Assembly: GCF_041248615.1 (NCBI RefSeq)
Contig: NZ_CP158426.1
DNA: 64,000 nucleotides
Reading direction: 5' to 3' (one strand)
Source: Escherichia coli
GTDB lineage: Bacteria; Pseudomonadota; Gammaproteobacteria; Enterobacterales; Enterobacteriaceae
Made by a program: the position numbers and the translations under genes. The notes under the pieces are model-generated. The model searched no databases and was not told the DNA's origin. It saw nothing but the letters and a program-made list of their open reading frames with translations. Shown in pieces: positions 17,681 to 27,203 of the stretch. The first letter of the stretch is position 1. The number at the start of each line of letters is the position of its first letter.

Positions 17681-18202
17681 TTATTCATCGATGCATTTTA
17701 TAGAATCATCAATGGCTACAATAGTACTATTAACTCTCCAATTTATATTTTTATTATCATTGCAAATATTAACTGAATCTATATCAATGATTTTTTTATT
17801 TTTATCTTTTATTTTGTTTACAGTTTCAATGCAATCAGCGACAAGTTGGTGTGGATTTAGATTCTTCAGATATGGTCTTATGATCTTTCCCTTGCTTAAT
17901 AAATAGCATGTATAGGATTCGGAAAGTCCAGCATCTATTTTGTACATCATTATTCTAGATAAGGATGTGAGAAATGCCTTGTTATCATTAGCAGCCATAT
18001 ATGCCAGTCCGAGTTCAGCCTCTGCGGCTTTACATGAAAAATAGCTAAGTGAACACGCTTTTCGTCCCTCTTGGGTACTGGCTGATATTAGTGCCCATAA
18101 TATTGCCTTGTCTGCCAAATCCAACTCTCTCTGAAATTGGTTTACAGTAACTGCATTCGCAGAAATAGAGAAGAAAAGCACAATTGTTAATAACCTTGTC
18201 AT
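17681..18202 (-). CDS. secreted hypothetical protein (Sec signal peptide); candidate periplasmic immunity protein of an orphan toxin module
   Basis: 173-aa ORF MTRLLTIVLFFSISANA|VTV...; AT-rich coding sequence; sits 4 bp downstream of the LDT-like ORF on the same strand. Confidence 0.45.
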   Translation of the reverse strand: MTRLLTIVLFFSISANAVTVNQFQRELDLADKAILWALISASTQEGRKACSLSYFSCKAAEAELGLAYMAANDNKAFLTSLSRIMMYKIDAGLSESYTCYLLSKGKIIRPYLKNLNPHQLVADCIETVNKIKDKNKKIIDIDSVNICNDNKNINWRVNSTIVAIDDSIKCIDE

Positions 18203-18206
18203 ATTT

Positions 18207-18482
18207 CTAGTCCGTCACTGTTAATGTGCTATCTGGCTCTGAAAATATTAGCTCATTTAATTTTTGCATGTCATTAGATGAACCAGTTATACAACCCTCG
18301 GAACAGAATCGAGGTCCTAAAGATGGACCAAAAGCGTTTAAACAACTATGTGTTAAAAATCCATCACGATTATACGTTTCTGTATTTGCTGACGGTACTA
18401 AACGTATACCATTAGGTTTTCTATTGGTTGCTCCAGGACTGTTAAGCAAGCCTCGTCCGGTTTGCTTCATTGAGTTCTCCAC
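18207..18482 (-). CDS. short ORF with L,D-transpeptidase-like catalytic motif (H-x16-S-x-G-C); candidate orphan toxin fragment
   Basis: 91-aa ORF with GTG start; ...LTHSCLNAFGPSLGPRFCSEGCITG... fits the YkuD H...[S/T]-x-G-C spacing. An overlapping 108-aa plus-strand ORF (18226..18552) cannot be excluded. Confidence 0.3.
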   Translation of the reverse strand: MENSMKQTGRGLLNSPGATNRKPNGIRLVPSANTETYNRDGFLTHSCLNAFGPSLGPRFCSEGCITGSSNDMQKLNELIFSEPDSTLTVTD

Positions 18483-18570: not shown

Positions 18571-18981
18571 TCACTTAATTTTCAGTTTTTTCCAAAAGTC
18601 AATATTCCCTTCTAATAAAATTTTTTCTATGGAATCTTCATTAATTTTATTATTAGAGCATATGACATTATCTTGAACGCCATATGACACCACCCCGTTT
18701 TTATCAATATAATATCTGTCTTTACCATCAATAATATAAATCCTAACATTTTTATCATCAAAATGGTAACACTCATTACTAGACCTGTTCAGTAACATTA
18801 ATAACTTCTCACGATTTATCTGTAATAATTTTTGTGCACCATCTTTTATTGCAAAATTTTCAATTTTACTTTTAGTGACAGGGGAATATGTTTGGATGCG
18901 AAAAGGCATCCTATAATGGAAAACATCAGCTATACAGCAAGATGAAAAAAATACGGAAATAAAATACAGACATACTTTCAT
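18571..18981 (-). CDS. hypothetical protein immediately downstream of the rhs toxin tip; candidate cognate immunity protein
   Basis: 136-aa AT-rich ORF MKVCLYFISVFFSSCCIADV... with hydrophobic N-terminus; 57 bp after the rhs stop, the canonical immunity position. Confidence 0.5.
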   Translation of the reverse strand: MKVCLYFISVFFSSCCIADVFHYRMPFRIQTYSPVTKSKIENFAIKDGAQKLLQINREKLLMLLNRSSNECYHFDDKNVRIYIIDGKDRYYIDKNGVVSYGVQDNVICSNNKINEDSIEKILLEGNIDFWKKLKIK

Positions 18982-19038: not shown

Positions 19039-21140
19039 TTAATATTTCATTCTTGCTGGCAAGCCCAACTCTTTACGAAATGGGTTTTCATATTTATCAA
19101 CATTAGCCATCGAGTCAGTTCCATCGTCTTTCATTCCCTTTGCATGCCCCATTTCATGCGCAAGAACCACACTCAACAGAGTGGGTTTCATGGCACATGC
19201 TTTGTTTTTTCCTTGATATACACATGAGCTATGGTCGTTATCAATATCAATGTAAAAACTATATTCAGTATCATCGTAGCATGTTTGGTTTATGCCTTTT
19301 CTTAATCCTCTAAATATATATTCATGCTCTGATGACTCTAATTCTTCTGTTATTTTATGTCCAAACTTTGTTTCTGCTACAGCTTTATATGCTTCTTTTA
19401 AAGTTTTTTGTGTACTTTCATCTCCCTGAAAAGACACTTTTAACCCTAATGGATCGAAACCAGATACCGGATTCAACGGATACTGATAAAAATTCCATCC
19501 CCCCTTAAGCCCAATCGGATCCTGAGTGATATACCGCCCCTGCAGCGGGTCATAATAGCGGTGGCGGTTGTAATAGAGGCCGGACTCCTCATCATACTGC
19601 TGACCCGGCAGGCGGATGAGCTGCTGCAGCTGGTGCGGGTTCTCTTCATTCAGCAGGTTGCCCCATTCATCGTATTCTGCGCACCATTCTGTTGCCCCTT
19701 CCGTGCTGACAAGCGCCAGCGGCAGGCCGCGATGGTCGCAGTGGTACAGGTGGATTTTTCGCGCCGGCGTGTACACCGGGTCCATCTGGTTTTGTATCTG
19801 CTCCACCGTCAGGCCGCACGATGCCAGCCAGCGGCGGCTTTCCTCACTCACCCGGTCAGCCAGGATTTCACTTTCCAGCCGGTCGAGCATCTGCACCAGC
19901 ACCGGCGGGAACACCACACTGCCACCGTCTTCACCGCCGGACTGCTGAAGCGCATCCGCCAGGCTGCGGCGCTGCGTTTTCGCCAGCTCACCGGTGGCAG
20001 TTTCAACTCTGATGAGTGGCGTGAAGCTCCCCGGCTGATAAACCGTCTGGATGCGGGTTCTGTCGTTCTGTATTGTGGTCAGCCGGTCGCCGTCCCAGCC
20101 GTACCAGGTCACTTCCGGTTTCCGTGACAGCGACATCCAGCCCGTCAGGTCCCGTTCACGCCGCCACACCCGTTTTGCCACCCTGCGGCCCAGCGGGTCG
20201 TAAAGATAGCGACTTTCGACCAGCGGCTCTGCATATTGTGTCCGCGTGTAGTGCACCAGCCGGTGCCGGCTGTCGTAATGGTACCGGTGAGTCCGCTCAT
20301 CATCCGTGCGGATAACCCCTTCCGGGATGAGGTCGGTTTTCTCCGTCAGCCTGCCGTGACGGTCATACCGGTAAAGATAGTGCGCGTCACGGGCGATACG
20401 GTTATCCGGCCACATGCTGAGGGTGCTGTCCGGGTGCAGCTCCGGGTCGGGCAGGCGGTTACCTGCCGGGTCCGTGGCATACGGGATGCGGATATCCAGA
20501 TTCGCTGCGGTGGTGTGGACGCCGGTCAGCCTGCCGGTGTCGCTGTAGCTGTAACTCCGGGTCTGGCGCGGGCTGCTGATGCGGATGAGTTCGCCGTTGT
20601 CGTTCCAGGTGTAATCGCGGTCATACTGCAGGCTGTTCAGGTGCTGGCTCTGTAACTGCCCGGCAGAGGTGTAAGCGGTGGTGAGTTCATAACGGCCGAA
20701 GCTGCGCAGCGTTTCCCGGTGCAGGCGGTCGCGGGTGTACTCCACCAGCGGTGTGTCGCCGAGTTTCATGCCTGACAGCCAGCCGCTGCCGTAGGTCAGC
20801 CATTCCACGGCGGGCAGGCTGTCCGGTATACAGCGGTTCGCCAGTCCCTGCGCGTTGTACGCATGTCTGGTTTCATGCTGCCAGAGCAGTGCTTCCGTCT
20901 GCGGGTGATGCACCGTCTGGCGCTCACCGGTCAGGCGGCCTTTCTCATCATACCCGTAATGCACCGTCACCCGGTGGCCTTCGCTGAGATGGCTGATTTG
21001 TGTCAGCCAGCCGCGTTCGTCGTACCGCCACTGTTCTGCGGTTTCACCATTCACCGTTCGCTGTGTGATGCGGTCTGCTTCGTCATAGTGCCAGTGGGTG
21101 ACCAGCCCCTCATCCTCGCTGCGGTGCGTATTACCGTGAA
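19039..21140 (-). pseudogene. rhs C-terminal segment: YD-repeat core end (…DPIGL…DPLGL) plus HExxH metallopeptidase-like toxin tip; separated from the rest of rhs by an IS21-family insertion
   Basis: ORF 19039..21159; Rhs YD repeats; core-end motif [39 protein letters not shown], then ~130-aa AT-rich tail containing [12 protein letters not shown]. Confidence 0.8.
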
Positions 21141-21209
21141 GGAGATCGGTGAGTAACATCGATGGAGATCGGTTCGTGTCACTTTCACAGAACCGTTTTT
21201 AAATTACCT

Positions 21210-21959
21210 TCACTGATCTCCTTCGGTCAACGGAGATTGTATTTTCCGCATTGATTCTCCTTTAAGTTCGATCTTGATACTGCCATGAACCAGTCGATCT
21301 AGGATGGCATCCGCATGTGTGGAGTCTCCGATCATTTTGTACCAGTTTTCCACCGGCAACTGGCTCACTACGATGATTGAGCCTCGTTGGTACATCAGAT
21401 CCACTATTTCCAGCAGGTCGCTACGCTGTTCTGATGAGAGAGGTTCCAGCCCCCAGTCATCCAGAAGCAGCAGATCGCTATTATTCAGCCTGGTCAAAAG
21501 TTTGCTGTATCTTCCATCAGCATGCCCCTGATAGCACTGTTCCATCAGCGCTTTAAGGCGATAATAGTAGACCTTGTATCCCTGTCGGCAGGCATTATGA
21601 CCAAGTGCACATGCCAGGAACGTTTTACCGCTGCCGGTGGCCCCGGTCAGTAAAATATTTTGTTTCAGGGTTAACCAGTTTCCCTGACTGAGTGAACGGA
21701 TGAGGGCCCTGTCCAGCCCTCTATTGTTACGATAATCCAGCTTTGATAACTCAGCATTAAGTCTGAACCGTGCATGTTTGATCAGACGCTCTGCCTTCCT
21801 GTTTTCACGGCAGGTTAGTTCTTCTGCTGTCAGTAATGACAGGCGTTCTTCGAAGCCCAGCTCCTGGTATGTGCCCGGCTGAGCAAGTTGCTTTTTAAGC
21901 GCATCACGGAAGCCGGTGAGTTTAAGTGCGGTCAGTTGTTCGTAAAGATGATTCATCAT
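21210..21959 (-). CDS. istB: IS21-family helper ATPase IstB
   Basis: 249-aa ORF with Walker A GATGSGKT and DnaC-like AAA+ fold signature. Confidence 0.9.
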   Translation of the reverse strand: MMNHLYEQLTALKLTGFRDALKKQLAQPGTYQELGFEERLSLLTAEELTCRENRKAERLIKHARFRLNAELSKLDYRNNRGLDRALIRSLSQGNWLTLKQNILLTGATGSGKTFLACALGHNACRQGYKVYYYRLKALMEQCYQGHADGRYSKLLTRLNNSDLLLLDDWGLEPLSSEQRSDLLEIVDLMYQRGSIIVVSQLPVENWYKMIGDSTHADAILDRLVHGSIKIELKGESMRKIQSPLTEGDQ

Positions 21960-21970
21960 TGGATCCCGTA

Positions 21971-23512
21971 TCAGTGGTAATACTCACTGCCGCGTACGTT
22001 TTCGTGTTCCATCGTGGATAACAGATCTGGTTTTGGATCCTGAACAGGTTGTTTATCCAGACCTTTTTCCAGGATCGATTTAATACCTGACAGACGCCAT
22101 ACCTTTGTTTTCAGAGCTCTTGCACATGCTGCATTAAGTCTGGCTTTACTGTATTTTTTATGAAGGTTCAGGAGTCCAAGGCAGAAGCGATAGCTTTGTT
22201 CCGGATGTGGACGAGAGTTCAGTATATGAAGCACATAACTATGAGTTTCACTGCCTATGTGCCCCGCCCATTCCAGAAGACGCTCTGGCGTCCAGGTGGC
22301 ATGCTGTCGATGAGCTTCAGGCATGTGCTCGTTGCGGGTACTGTAGCCATAAGTACGCTTGCGCGGGTGCACAGCAACCTCCTGCCCCTGATTGAAGAGT
22401 CTTACCAGTTCTCCGGAGATCCATGCTTCCAGTTGCTGGCCTAACAGCGAACATGGAACCGAGTAGTAATGTTTGTCGATTTCCACGTGGTAATCGGCAT
22501 GAACTCTGACTTTCTTCACCAGGGTGTAACTGTAACTGGCTTCAGGAAGAGGCTTCAGTGCGGGTTTATCAAGCTGGATGAAGAGTTCTGCACGTGAATA
22601 ACCCAACTTCTGCATTATTTTGTTATTCAGTCTTTCCAGCAACTCCCGAATGCGCTGATTAAGCGATGCAAGGCTGTAGAAGATCTCATGCCTGATTCGG
22701 GCCATGATCCAGCGTTCAACAACCTGAACGCCAACTTCAGCTTTGGCTTTATCTTTCGGTTTACGTGGCCGCGCAGGCAAAACTGCGACATTATAATGCT
22801 CAAGCATCTGCTGGTAGGTAGGGTTAACGTCAGGATCATACTTACATGCCCTGGATGTGGCGCTTTTCAGATTGTCCGGAACAACAAGTTCAGGAACGCC
22901 ACCCAACCACTGGAAGCAGCGAACATGACTCATCACCCAGTCTTCAAGCTGCTGAGACCAGGTGGCCTCTGCCCATGTGTAACTTGATGCCCCGAGAACA
23001 GCTACGATGACCTGAGCAGTTCTTATTTCTCCGGTCTCAGGGTCGGTAACGCCAACGGTAGGTCCACAGTAATCAACGAAAAGTTTTTCGCCAGCTTTAT
23101 GTACCTGACGCATTGATGGTGAAGTGGTTTTGAGCCATTCACGGTACATCCGGCAGTAATGGTTATAGCTGTAAAAACCGCCTGGATTACGCTCACAGTA
23201 TTCTTCCCAGAGTAGCTGCAGCGTCACGCATTTATTACGCAGTTCCCGGTGTACTGTAGCCCAGTCAGGCAGAGAGTGCTTCTTCATCTTAACCTGGGTC
23301 TGAAGGAACGCATGTTTTAGTTTTGTATCATCCCATCCTGTAGGTAAGGGCCACTGCTTTATGCCAAGTTGAGCCGCCCGATTAGCATATCTGGATACAA
23401 CGGAAGGGGAGATTGCAAGACTACGACCAATTTGTCGATGGCTGAGTCCAACACCGTATTTAAGCCTAAGAATTTCTTTAAGTTTTCTCATAGAAATTGG
23501 AACTGTTGGCAT
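21971..23512 (-). CDS. istA: IS21-family transposase IstA
   Basis: 513-aa ORF with N-terminal HTH and integrase-type DDE core; immediately upstream of istB. Confidence 0.9.
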   Translation of the reverse strand: MPTVPISMRKLKEILRLKYGVGLSHRQIGRSLAISPSVVSRYANRAAQLGIKQWPLPTGWDDTKLKHAFLQTQVKMKKHSLPDWATVHRELRNKCVTLQLLWEEYCERNPGGFYSYNHYCRMYREWLKTTSPSMRQVHKAGEKLFVDYCGPTVGVTDPETGEIRTAQVIVAVLGASSYTWAEATWSQQLEDWVMSHVRCFQWLGGVPELVVPDNLKSATSRACKYDPDVNPTYQQMLEHYNVAVLPARPRKPKDKAKAEVGVQVVERWIMARIRHEIFYSLASLNQRIRELLERLNNKIMQKLGYSRAELFIQLDKPALKPLPEASYSYTLVKKVRVHADYHVEIDKHYYSVPCSLLGQQLEAWISGELVRLFNQGQEVAVHPRKRTYGYSTRNEHMPEAHRQHATWTPERLLEWAGHIGSETHSYVLHILNSRPHPEQSYRFCLGLLNLHKKYSKARLNAACARALKTKVWRLSGIKSILEKGLDKQPVQDPKPDLLSTMEHENVRGSEYYH

Positions 23513-23693
23513 AGGTATCCTTTACCGGAATGGCAAAAGATACAGATCAACACACCTGTGAAGTTCCAATAACATTGATGGAGATCACTGAATAACAAAA
23601 TGAGTCAAAAGTGATCTCCATCGATGTTATTCAGCGATCTGTTCAAATGTTATTACCCGATCTCGATGGAAGTTATTGAGTGATCTCCTTTCA

Positions 23694-24723
23694 TGAAAAT
23701 ACGCACTGCGGATAAGTTTACCGGTCAGGTCGTGGTGATAACGCTGTGTGCGGCCGTCAAAGCCGGTTTCCTGTATCAGCCGGTCGAGTACATCGTAACG
23801 GAAGGTGGTGTGGCTGCCGTTTTCACTGGTCAGGCGGATGACCCGTCCGGCAGCATCGTATTCCATACTGCGCGTCAGACCGCCCTGTGTGGTACGGATG
23901 GCCTTTCCCCACGCATCGTACTGTGTCCCGTTTCTGCTGCCGTCCGGGGCAATGACGGCGGTCAGGTCACCGGCGGCGTTGTATTCATACCGCGTTTCAT
24001 GGCCCTGCGTGTCTTTCACCGCAATTAACTGTCCACGGCTGTCGTATGCGCGGTACTGACTCAGCCCTTCCTCGCGGTGCACCGCCGTCACCTGACCAAA
24101 ACGGTCATGGTCATAACGGGTTACATAACCGGAACAGTCAGTGACGGTCAGCAACTGACCGTAACGGCTCCATGTCATGGTTTTCCGGCTGCCGGTGGCA
24201 TCTTCCGTTGCGCAGGGTAAGTCACTGTGTGGATTATCATAACGGTAGCGGGTGATATCGCCGTTGTGTGCGGTTTCCTGAATCAGACGGCCGGATTCAT
24301 CATATTCCCGGCGCAATTCCAGCCCGTCAGGCCCGGTGGCTGACGTTAACTGGCTGTGGTGGTTATAGTAAAATGCCGATGCCCTGCCATCCGGTGTGGT
24401 GATGCGCGTGATGAGTCCCGTCACCACATCCGGGCTGTACTCAGTCGTCCGGCCTGCGGCATCCGTCTGTGCCTTAAGCCTGCCCACCGCGTCAAACTGA
24501 CTCTGCGTGACGCTGCCGTCCGCGTGTTCCTTTTTCACCACCCGCTTCAGCCCGCCTTCGCCCTGCGTGTGCAGCACTTCACGGCGGTCCAGGCTGTCGG
24601 TGATGGTGATGTGGTCTTTCTCATACTGATACGTGTAGCTTAAGCCTGCCGGGTTTAGCTGTTCTGTCACCCGCCCGTCACTGTCGTAACGGTAACGGAT
24701 TTCCGGCCGGCCCGTGTGACGGT
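23694..24723 (-). pseudogene. rhs middle segment (YD-repeat region) lying between the two IS insertions
   Basis: ORF 23627..24670 with repeated YD/RYxYD motifs (…RYRYDNPH…YVTRYDHDRFGQ…YEYNAAGDL…); frame continues upstream to the IS3-family boundary. Confidence 0.8.
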
Positions 24724-25478
<755 letters not shown>

Positions 25479-25582
25479 ATCAGCATACTTGTCCTTAGCC
25501 TTCTGCAGTGACAGCTGGTAGTACAGCGTGCTTCTGGCCAGCCCTGCAGCCTTTAACAGGTCAGACTGGCAGTGTCCGCACC

Positions 25583-26113
25583 TCAGGCTCCGGATGACTT
25601 TCGTTTTTTCTCCAGCTCCTGGCGCTTTTTTTCCAGGAGATGCTCCTGCATGGCTTTCAGATATGCATTTTCTGCGCGAAGATAACGCAGCTCATTCTTC
25701 ATCTCTTCCGGCGTCATGTTTGCCTCGTTTTCATGGGTATCATCAGAACGGGTCATGCTTTTCTCCTTCCTGCGCCTGATAAAGGCCTCATTACCAGATT
25801 TGCGGTAGCCTTTTATCCAGTTTTTAACCGTGTTGTGGCTGGGAATGTTAAACCGGGCAGCTACCCGGGGTAGAGACTCAGAATGCCCGAGAGCATAAAG
25901 AACCACGCAAAGTTTATCTTCAGGAGAATAGCTACGCTTGTGTCTGCAATCCAGTGCCCGAGGACCGTGAAGAAGAAAAAGATTAATCCAGTGTGAGAGG
26001 CTGGTGTGAGAAAGTTGAAAGAGTTTTGCCGTAGAAATGATGCCTGTATGACCAGCCAGGTAATGATTTACAGCGGCAAGTTTTACTTCAAATGAATGTT
26101 TCATAAACTGCAC
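25583..26113 (-). CDS. IS3-family transposase OrfA (HTH)
   Basis: 176-aa ORF with HTH region and leucine-zipper-like C-terminus; contains A-AAA-AAG slippery heptamer near its 3' end. Confidence 0.85.
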   Translation of the reverse strand: MQFMKHSFEVKLAAVNHYLAGHTGIISTAKLFQLSHTSLSHWINLFLLHGPRALDCRHKRSYSPEDKLCVVLYALGHSESLPRVAARFNIPSHNTVKNWIKGYRKSGNEAFIRRRKEKSMTRSDDTHENEANMTPEEMKNELRYLRAENAYLKAMQEHLLEKKRQELEKKRKSSGA

Positions 26114-26155
26114 CTTCAGATGTCAGATTATGTCCAACATTTGGGGTGCAGTTCA

Positions 26156-27203
26156 GGTGCGCCACCATCCGGCCCCGGTATTTATCATCGTAAGTAAAGC
26201 TGCGCACCTGTGTATTGCTGCGGTCATACACCGCCGCCAGTTCGCCGCGTGGCGTCCAGCCATAGCGCACCAGCGGCGCGGCAGGTAAATTCTCCGGGTA
26301 TTCCGGGTCGTGCGTCAGCCACACGGCAGACAGACGGATGCCGTTGTCCCGGCCATATTCGGTGTAACCCGGCAGGGTATCAGGAAAAACGGACGGTTCC
26401 ATCCCGCCGGAAATGGCCTGCTGCCGGGCTTCTTCTGCCCGCTGCGCCTGCGTGGTCAGTACCAGCCGGAAGTGACGCCCGGCACCATCCGTCACGCCGG
26501 TGATTTCGCCGCTGAATTCGCCGCCAGCCTCACGGTGGAACGTCTGTGTGCGCCCGAAGCGGTCCACCAGCCCGGTCAGTACCCGGTACGGCGGCAGCGG
26601 CGCAGGCAGCACCTCATCCGCCTCCGGCACCCGCTCACACCAGCCGAGTACCCACCACGGCCCCTGCGGACTGTTCGTCGCCAGATAACGATGCGGACTC
26701 AGGCGAAGCTCTTCCGGCAGCGCCTGCCAGAGTGCGGCCAGCCGGTGACCTTCATCCAGTTTCGCCACGCCGCCGCGCACCAGCCAGAGTGACTCGCTGC
26801 GGCTGTAACCGTCCTCACCGGGAAACAGGTGCTCAAAATACAGGCTTCTGCCGCCGTTATCACTGAGTATCAGTGTGTTATCGCGCAGCTGTAAGCGGAT
26901 ATCCGCAGGCATTTTCCAGCCGGGGCCGAGGCTCCCCACCGGCGCGGGCGTTTTTGTCCGGTAACTGCTGTAGGTGCGGGAGAGGATGAACGGCAGCGGG
27001 CCGGGCAGGGCAAGGTCGGTTTCGCCGGGAAGGACCTTCGCGCCGAGCAGCGGATTGACCGGATGGCCGGACGTCACCCCGCCGGGGCACACCGAACAGG
27101 CCACGCCGGTGGGGGCACCGATGCGCACCCCGGCTGAACCCTGGACAATGCTACCGCCATACTGCGTCATGTCGCCCTGACGCGCCGCCGGTTTTCCGCT
27201 CAT
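26156..27203 (-). pseudogene. rhsA: rhs N-terminal segment (PAAR-like N-terminus), truncated by the IS3-family insertion
   Basis: Starts MSGKPAARQGDMTQYGGSIVQGSAGVRIGAPTGVACSVCPGG..., the conserved Rhs N-terminus; divergent from yibF as recalled for rhsA; reading frame runs into the IS. Confidence 0.82.

Follow-up and report, generated by a model that had tools for sequence, protein, structure and literature searches.

The window analysed in our study, a stretch of 64,000 nt that is 100% identical to NZ_LT599825.1:192001-256000 in the chromosome of Escherichia coli NRZ14408, carries at its yibF/yibH (rhsA) locus a minus-strand rhs gene in three collinear pieces, split by the insertion sequences IS1397 and ISEc12. 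We estimate with a probability of about 95% that an intact rhs gene of 1380 codons at this locus has been inactivated by two separate transpositions, which would make it a loss-of-function toxin allele. The disruption as such is already on record: in NZ_LT599825.1, PGAP annotates the rhs gene as a pseudogene in three pieces and marks both IS1397 and ISEc12, so that every part is labelled in RefSeq. Gene decay through insertion sequences is routine in rhs toxin genes, and the double disruption described here is an ordinary event of little import beyond the strain. Its full path, from the intact allele through a single insertion to the double one, is documented by natural isolates. The three segments described in the initial annotation are all present; the limits of the first (26156..27203) are unchanged, and the other two have been shortened from 23694..24723 to 23706..24723 and from 19039..21140 to 19039..21124. 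The features of the locus are:

26156..27203, minus strand: rhs piece 1, with the start codon and the N-terminal 349 codons (MSGKPAARQGDMTQYGG...), from NCBIfam RHS_core
24724..26155, minus strand: IS1397 (IS3 family), 1432 bp, ends TGAACTG...CAGTTCA, from ends shared with other copies
24756..26104, minus strand (rhs direction): IS1397 transposase orfAB with a programmed frameshift, from the sequence, PGAP and NCBIfam
24721..24723 and 26156..26158, no strand: target-site duplication GGT of IS1397, from the single GGT in intact alleles
26166..26173, plus strand: CATCCGGC, resembling the right arm of a PU/REP palindrome, from comparison with genuine PU insertions
23706..24723, minus strand: rhs piece 2, YD-repeat shell, 1018 nt, from the sequence and alignment to intact alleles
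21125..23705, minus strand: ISEc12 (IS21 family), 2581 bp, from six copies elsewhere and the empty site
21971..23512, minus strand (rhs direction): ISEc12 istA, from NCBIfam
21210..21956, minus strand (rhs direction): ISEc12 istB, from NCBIfam
21119..21124 and 23706..23711, no strand: target-site duplication CTGCGG of ISEc12, 6 bp, from empty sites
19039..21124, minus strand: rhs piece 3, which completes the YD shell and adds the Rhs-associated core (ending DPIGL...DPLGL), with the toxin tip at the C-terminus, from profile matches
19039..19440, minus strand: variable toxin tip, 133 aa, with the zinc-peptidase motif HEMGH read from the sequence
18571..18981, minus strand: candidate cognate immunity gene, 136 aa, intact, with a hydrophobic N-terminal segment, from its position
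17681..18482, minus strand: orphan module, in which an Imm57-family immunity gene (17681..18202) comes after the C-terminal fragment of a toxin (18207..18482), from Pfam and PGAP

Piece 1 covers positions 1-357 of the 1261 in NCBIfam RHS_core (E 2.7e-219) and is labelled by PGAP as a DUF6531 pseudogene without its C-terminus; as present in the window, it belongs to an open reading frame (26088..27203) that continues through 22 codons encoded by IS1397 and then stops. Piece 2 appears in PGAP as an 'RHS element protein' pseudogene with both termini missing. Piece 3, which is matched by TIGR03696 (Rhs_assc_core) and by the last part of RHS_core, is now read from an ATG located within the end of ISEc12 (open reading frame 19039..21159). 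Excision of both elements, each with one copy of its duplication, restores the single continuous frame that had been proposed, with no internal stop; its length is 4143 nt or 1380 codons, not the approximately 1390 first given. The restored frame scores 2638.4 bits against RHS_core (NF041261; cut-off 2000), and its residues 1-1247 cover model positions 1-1261, while the pieces scanned alone remain far below 2000 (731 bits for piece 1 and 67 bits for the C-terminal 173 residues). It also matches the YD repeats (TIGR01643, E 1.6e-38) and TIGR03696 (E 1.4e-22, ending at residue 1247), and the motifs DPIGL and DPLGL of the DPxGL core end can be read in it.

The uninterrupted allele, for which the initial annotation had pointed to related strains, was found by comparison, together with an intermediate that carries IS1397 only. 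The restored gene aligns end to end and gapless, at 99.3% identity, with intact 'RHS element core protein' genes of the yibF-rhs-yibH locus in other strains, an ST38 isolate among them; the best match to it is at least 99% in 109 records, and the restored protein differs from the product of the intact allele at 10 of its 1380 residues. Intact Rhs genes of the rhsA locus (NF041261), such as WP_106106671.1 of strain 21AH006, have yibF on one side and yibH/yibI/mtlA on the other, as in the window, and share with it the length of 4143 nt, the 99.3% nucleotide identity and the identical downstream proteins WP_000861664.1 and WP_000197506.1. They are uninterrupted, whereas the gene in the window is interrupted twice and the full protein cannot be encoded.

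The intermediate is the near-isogenic NZ_OW967178.1 (isolate 362), which has IS1397 at the same rhs site and an empty ISEc12 site, and which differs from the window outside rhs by one mismatch in the compared flanks; the two insertions are therefore separate events. Both occur together in only one of 5426 complete genomes, the source record itself. Since the transposase and helper proteins have the same accessions as those of copies elsewhere, IS1397 and ISEc12 appear to be recent and intact. The intact ends, a duplication for each element, the gapless restored frame and the IS1397-only isolate together support the original proposal of two independent, recent and simple insertions into an intact rhs gene, and we found no evidence that contradicts this anatomy.

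As for the order of events, IS1397 very probably inserted before ISEc12, judging from the one intermediate genome. It is unlikely that ISEc12 came first, or that both insertions are ancestral and ISEc12 was later lost precisely in isolate 362. Such a history could draw on the fact that only one IS1397-only genome was found, and that in this isolate sequence similar to the nikR-locus paralogue later replaced part of piece 2, a type of gene conversion that could in principle erase an insertion. However, the differences of the conversion tract, at 23720-24491, stop within piece 2; on the opposite side of the site differences resume at 20667-20740, and the empty ISEc12 site stands in otherwise complete identity. 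Precise loss from a double-insertion ancestor, although formally possible, would be unusual, and a simple acquisition of ISEc12 is more economical. Less probable still is an assembly artefact, in which rhs paralogues and multi-copy insertion sequences were misjoined while the strain in fact has an undamaged gene: rhs cores and insertion sequences are repeats that confuse assemblers, and the ISEc12 junctions are found in one record only, but a chimeric join would not yield exact target duplications at both elements and pieces perfectly collinear with the intact gene, and the IS1397 junctions recur in an assembly that is independent and comes from another country.

The separate insertion of IS1397 is well delimited. 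The IS3-family element had been placed at 24724..26155 with a GGT repeat, and this is exact: its ends are the same in 14 other copies sampled, and intact alleles carry GGT once, with a 3-bp overlap between the alignment blocks at the site. Recomputation gave the same 1435 bp for the element plus one GGT, that is, 1 mod 3. PGAP names the element 'IS3-like element IS1397 family transposase', and the transposase reaches 299.8 bits with NCBIfam transpos_IS3 (cut-off 160). Near-identity to named copies, TG...CA inverted repeats, a frameshifted orfAB and a duplication of the 3-4 bp class identify it as IS1397. It is like known copies in its 1432 bp, its ends, the 3-bp duplication and the frameshift-dependent transposase, with 97.3-99.4% identity to other copies and 100% to that of isolate 362. 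Full copies of IS1397 occur in 1707 genomes. A second copy of IS1397 or ISEc12 was not found within the 64-kb window.

The limits of the IS21-family element had to be corrected. The initial annotation placed it at about 21141..23693 between TGAA repeats; TGAA lies inside both inverted repeats, and the element occupies 21125..23705 with CTGCGG as its duplication. The terminal inverted repeats start TGCGTATT..., and six ISEc12 copies in unrelated contexts all start TGCGTATTACCGTGAAGGAGATC and end ...CTCCTTTCATGAAAATACGCA, diverging immediately beyond. NZ_OW967178.1 and NZ_AP043962.1 have CTGCGG only once, and there the two alignment blocks share exactly 6 bp. Alignment to reference copies had been named as the check on the ends of both elements; it left those of IS1397 in place and moved those of the IS21-family element, for which a target duplication nevertheless exists. 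The length of insert plus one repeat changes accordingly from 2557 to 2587 bp, and the remainder of 1 mod 3 is retained; the earlier frame arithmetic worked only because the error, 30 bp, is a multiple of three. That the narrower limits with a 4-bp TGAA duplication and an ancestral frame of about 1390 codons are correct is hardly tenable, for although TGAA is present at 21137-21140 and 23694-23697 and excision of 21141-23697 is likewise in frame and stop-free, this excision leaves 30 bp of ISEc12, with 10 codons (AYFHGNTHRS) standing where the native junction should be, while the six copies extend identically past these limits by 16 bp on the left and 12 bp on the right, and the extra 30 bp are absent from the empty sites and the intact alleles.

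With its limits at 21125..23705, the element is 99.6-99.9% identical to annotated ISEc12 copies. Its istA and istB are above the cut-offs of NCBIfam (transpos_IS21, 310.5 bits, cut-off 160; IS21_help_AAA, 270 bits, cut-off 200), and together with the shared ends and the target duplication they identify it as ISEc12. It resembles known ISEc12 in having both genes, TG...CA ends and several end repeats of the GGAGATC type; its duplication of 6 bp, compared with 5-8 bp at other copies, is nothing unusual. Elsewhere, too, rhs genes are interrupted by copies of ISEc12, at different positions.

Under the reading of two successive transpositions, the product of the ancestral gene would have consisted of an N-terminal domain and a YD-repeat shell, followed by the DPxGL core end and a toxin tip that resembles a metallopeptidase. 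Of the two elements, IS1397 would have inserted first, after codon 349, duplicating GGT, and ISEc12 later, around codon 688, duplicating CTGCGG. Each of the two moves the frame by +1 and introduces stop codons, so at most three products would be expected: the N-terminal 349 aa followed by 22 aa coded by the insertion sequence and, possibly, internal fragments and a C-terminal fragment of 706 aa starting inside the ISEc12 end. Because none of these would join the N-terminal delivery part to the toxin, toxin delivery would be lost, to judge from what is known of the family, and the allele would be one of lost toxin function.

The putative role of the 133-aa tip as a toxin likewise follows from what is known of the family. 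Its match to Pfam Peptidase_M91 is weak (i-E 0.0018), and a search of PDB sequences gave weak matches to snake-venom metalloproteinases around HEMGH (E 0.16). The 136-aa gene lies directly downstream of the tip, and its product, WP_000861664.1, is also encoded after the intact allele of other strains. The product has no match to a Pfam or NCBIfam family, and the position of the gene makes it a candidate immunity gene. In the orphan module, the toxin fragment has a weak match to Pfam Tlde1 (i-E 0.0013), limited to the C-terminal portion of that model, and PGAP names 17681..18202 'Imm57 family immunity protein'. If transcribed, the intact downstream and orphan immunity genes would be expected to protect the strain against relatives with a working allele. 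The initial annotation added that the toxin/immunity cassette may still be expressed from internal promoters; between 18400 and 21400, promoter-like sites are at chance level (5, compared with 3.6 +/- 1.7 in shuffled sequence), and the only terminator-like hairpin is a weak one on the minus strand (19183-19170).

Of mild interest is the unusual place where IS1397 landed, since it bears on target recognition by a 'REP-specific' transposase. In a passage of PMC1525189, which cites Clement 1999 and Wilde 2001 and 2003, IS1397 is stated to insert specifically into PU/REP sequences, and all 14 other copies sampled in our study are housed in the loops of PU/REP palindromes. The rhs site is not such a loop: the copy in the window lies in protein-coding, non-palindromic DNA that resembles a PU only partly. 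The identity of the element stands, because this mismatch is a property of the target and not of the element. We consider the chances evenly balanced that IS1397 can be captured by half a PU target, consisting of a right arm and a displaced GGCCGG, with no stable hairpin. If this resemblance guided the insertion, the natural event would help to narrow down what the transposase minimally needs for recognition, and repeats in conserved coding sequence, rhs cores for example, could be rare off-targets of IS1397. A cryptic PU hairpin was considered and rejected: as DNA, the restored target folds no better than shuffled sequences (z +0.52), whereas two genuine PU targets folded in the same way gave z -3.4 and -2.9. 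The half-site resemblance is retained; its only PU-like parts are the right arm CATCCGGC and, on the left, the displaced GGCCGG, and the distance from the IS1397 end to the start of CATCCGGC, 10 nt, is the commonest one in genuine PU insertions.

We found that the double interruption of the rhs gene is real. The main interpretation in the initial annotation, namely independent and recent simple insertions into a formerly intact rhs gene, proved right in light of isolate 362, the empty sites and the target duplications; the coordinates and the duplication of ISEc12 required correction. Window positions 12100-32730 are 100% identical, without gaps, to 204100-224730 of NZ_LT599825.1, the chromosome of E. 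coli NRZ14408, and placed from this alignment the whole window corresponds to 192001-256000 of that record. The gene order is mtlA, yibI, yibH, the rhs region (minus strand), yibF, selA and selB, and this site is the rhsA locus of E. coli. The components of the interrupted gene are the following.

Features of the interrupted rhs gene (window positions)
26088-27203, minus strand: N-terminal ORF of 371 codons, 349 from Rhs and 22 from the IS1397 end
26156-26158 and 24721-24723: GGT duplication of IS1397
24724-26155: IS1397, 1432 bp, running from TGAACTGAACCCC to GGGGTGCAGTTCA
23706-24723, minus strand: middle rhs piece, remaining between IS1397 and ISEc12
23706-23711 and 21119-21124: CTGCGG duplication of ISEc12
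21125-23705: ISEc12 (IS21 family), 2581 bp, from the six-copy end comparison
19039-21159, minus strand: C-terminal ORF of 706 codons, the first dozen from the ISEc12 end

At this locus, PGAP annotates an rhs pseudogene with its C-terminus missing, an 'IS3-like element IS1397 family transposase', an rhs pseudogene with both ends missing, istA/istB of ISEc12 and an rhs pseudogene with its N-terminus missing. Since the twice-interrupted structure is thus already in the RefSeq annotation, and rhs genes are commonly disrupted by IS, this is an ordinary result. The gene can be assigned to the E. coli Rhs core family, and IS1397 and ISEc12 are the elements that interrupt it; every testable defining feature was found, with the single exception of the IS1397 target, which is not a PU/REP sequence.

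The limits of the IS3-family element had been given exactly, with GGT repeats, in the initial annotation: its ends and length are common to 14 IS1397 copies fetched from other genomes (six that headed a flank-biased ranking and eight evenly spread from an IS-only search), two of which differ by small indels. Where NZ_AP043962.1, with its intact allele, lacks IS1397, the two flanking alignment blocks overlap by exactly 3 bp. The ends of ISEc12 were set from six copies in unrelated contexts (two plasmids, prophage tail/baseplate genes and another rhs gene); every copy begins with TGCGTATTACCGTGAAGGAGATC, finishes with CTCCTTTCATGAAAATACGCA and diverges directly outside, which places the element at 21125-23705. 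An IS21-family element at about 21141-23693 flanked by TGAA, as formerly proposed, is ruled out by these copies and the empty sites, TGAA lying inside both terminal inverted repeats. At the empty sites of NZ_OW967178.1 (isolate 362) and the intact NZ_AP043962.1 allele, left and right blocks overlap by exactly 6 bp and confirm the corrected limits. The duplications of seven ISEc12 copies (L003-L008, found elsewhere, and 21119-21124 in the window) measure 5-8 bp, often with CTG (CTGCGG, CTGGT, CTGGG, GCTGAGAG, TGAGA, ACGGT, ACTG-), which hints at a mild target preference. Copies elsewhere also break other rhs genes at different sites, two such being L008 and L010.

Removal of both elements, each with one duplication copy (1435 bp for IS1397 and 2587 bp for ISEc12, each 1 mod 3), yields one continuous rhs ORF, as had been predicted. 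The expected ORF of about 1390 codons (4173 nt) is in frame and free of internal stops, as is the corrected one of 4143 nt, since the difference between them is 30 bp; the true length, however, is 1380 codons. The longer version would retain ten ISEc12-derived codons at the junction, and only the corrected one fits the intact alleles. Bases 1-4143 of the latter align in one stretch, without gaps and at 99.3% identity, with intact genes of equal length at the same locus annotated as 'RHS element core protein', and with this query the best match was at least 99% identical in 109 records. Compared with WP_106106671.1, the restored protein has 10 differences in 1380 residues; it covers the whole NCBIfam RHS_core model with 2638 bits (cut-off 2000) and contains both YD repeats and the Rhs-associated core.

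Isolate 362, from Spain, carries IS1397 at the same position of the same locus, with 100% identity over a 1532-bp stretch that includes both junctions, and its ISEc12 site is empty; on this comparison the two insertions are separate events, and IS1397 very probably inserted first. Both isolates share the protein accessions of yibF, selA and selB, and their compared flanks show only one mismatch outside rhs sequence. Of 5426 complete genomes, only the source covers a query requiring both IS flanks; the junctions between IS1397 and rhs are present in 2 genomes. The two elements look recent and active, since their transposase/helper accessions match those of copies elsewhere, ISEc12 is 99.6-99.9% identical to other copies and both target duplications are perfect. 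Differences between NRZ14408 and isolate 362 cluster within rhs, at 23720-24491 (24 sites), 26538-26651 (5) and 20667-20740 (3). The middle piece of isolate 362 is 99.5% identical to the intact nikR-adjacent paralogue of NRZ14408 (NZ_LT599825.1:373525-374533), a pattern that suggests gene conversion among rhs paralogues later than the insertion of IS1397.

According to PMC1525189 and the papers cited there, PU/REP sequences are the specific insertion targets of IS1397. The 14 other sampled copies all interrupt a GCCGGAT...ATCCGGC palindrome at its loop and show duplications of 3-4 bp, whereas the window copy has coding sequence as its target (24700-24723, 26156-26180). Folding of the restored rhs target is no better than that of its shuffles, at z +0.52, against z -3.4 and -2.9 for two true PU targets. 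The right flank reads GGTGCGCCAC-CATCCGGCC and resembles half a PU, with the right-arm sequence CATCCGGC 10 nt right of the IS end, the commonest arm-to-IS spacing among sampled copies, and, on the left side, GGCCGG. It is plausible that this look-alike guided an off-target insertion, because the right arm stands at the usual spacing, YATCMGGC at offset 8-10 has a chance of about 5e-4 per random position and orientation (computed in the window) and only two motifs of this type occur in the 4143-nt gene. Many genomes that have no full IS1397 contain one unannotated site, at about 258 kb in K-12-like chromosomes for instance, that matches nucleotides 1-65 of the element (24724-24788) at 96.9%; this site may be a solo IS-end remnant.

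Each insertion brings stops into rhs. Encapsulation and delivery in the Rhs family require that N-terminal region, YD shell and C-terminal toxin be joined in one polypeptide; the interrupted allele is accordingly predicted to be a loss-of-function toxin gene. NRZ14408 retains an intact Rhs paralogue next to nikR. Downstream of DPLGL, the 133-aa tip (19039-19440, minus strand) carries HEMGH; its Pfam match to Peptidase_M91 is weak (i-E 0.0018), as are its PDB matches to zinc metalloproteinases around this motif. The adjacent candidate immunity protein (136 aa, 18571-18981, minus strand) had no family match. Its N-terminus is hydrophobic and signal-like, features compatible with an immunity protein that is transported out of the cytoplasm; position suggests the toxin and immunity roles of the two. 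Neither the 136-aa gene nor the Imm57 gene (17681-18202) is disrupted, and both are identical to their counterparts next to intact alleles. Promoter-like sites occur at chance frequency. Read-through transcription into the downstream genes is possible, because the genes of both IS elements are co-oriented with rhs and only one weak terminator-like hairpin lies on the rhs strand from ISEc12 to the immunity gene. Downstream of the main toxin/immunity pair lies an orphan module (17681-18482, minus strand), in which a 91-codon ORF weakly matching the C-terminal part of the Tlde1 domain is directly followed by the Imm57-family immunity gene.
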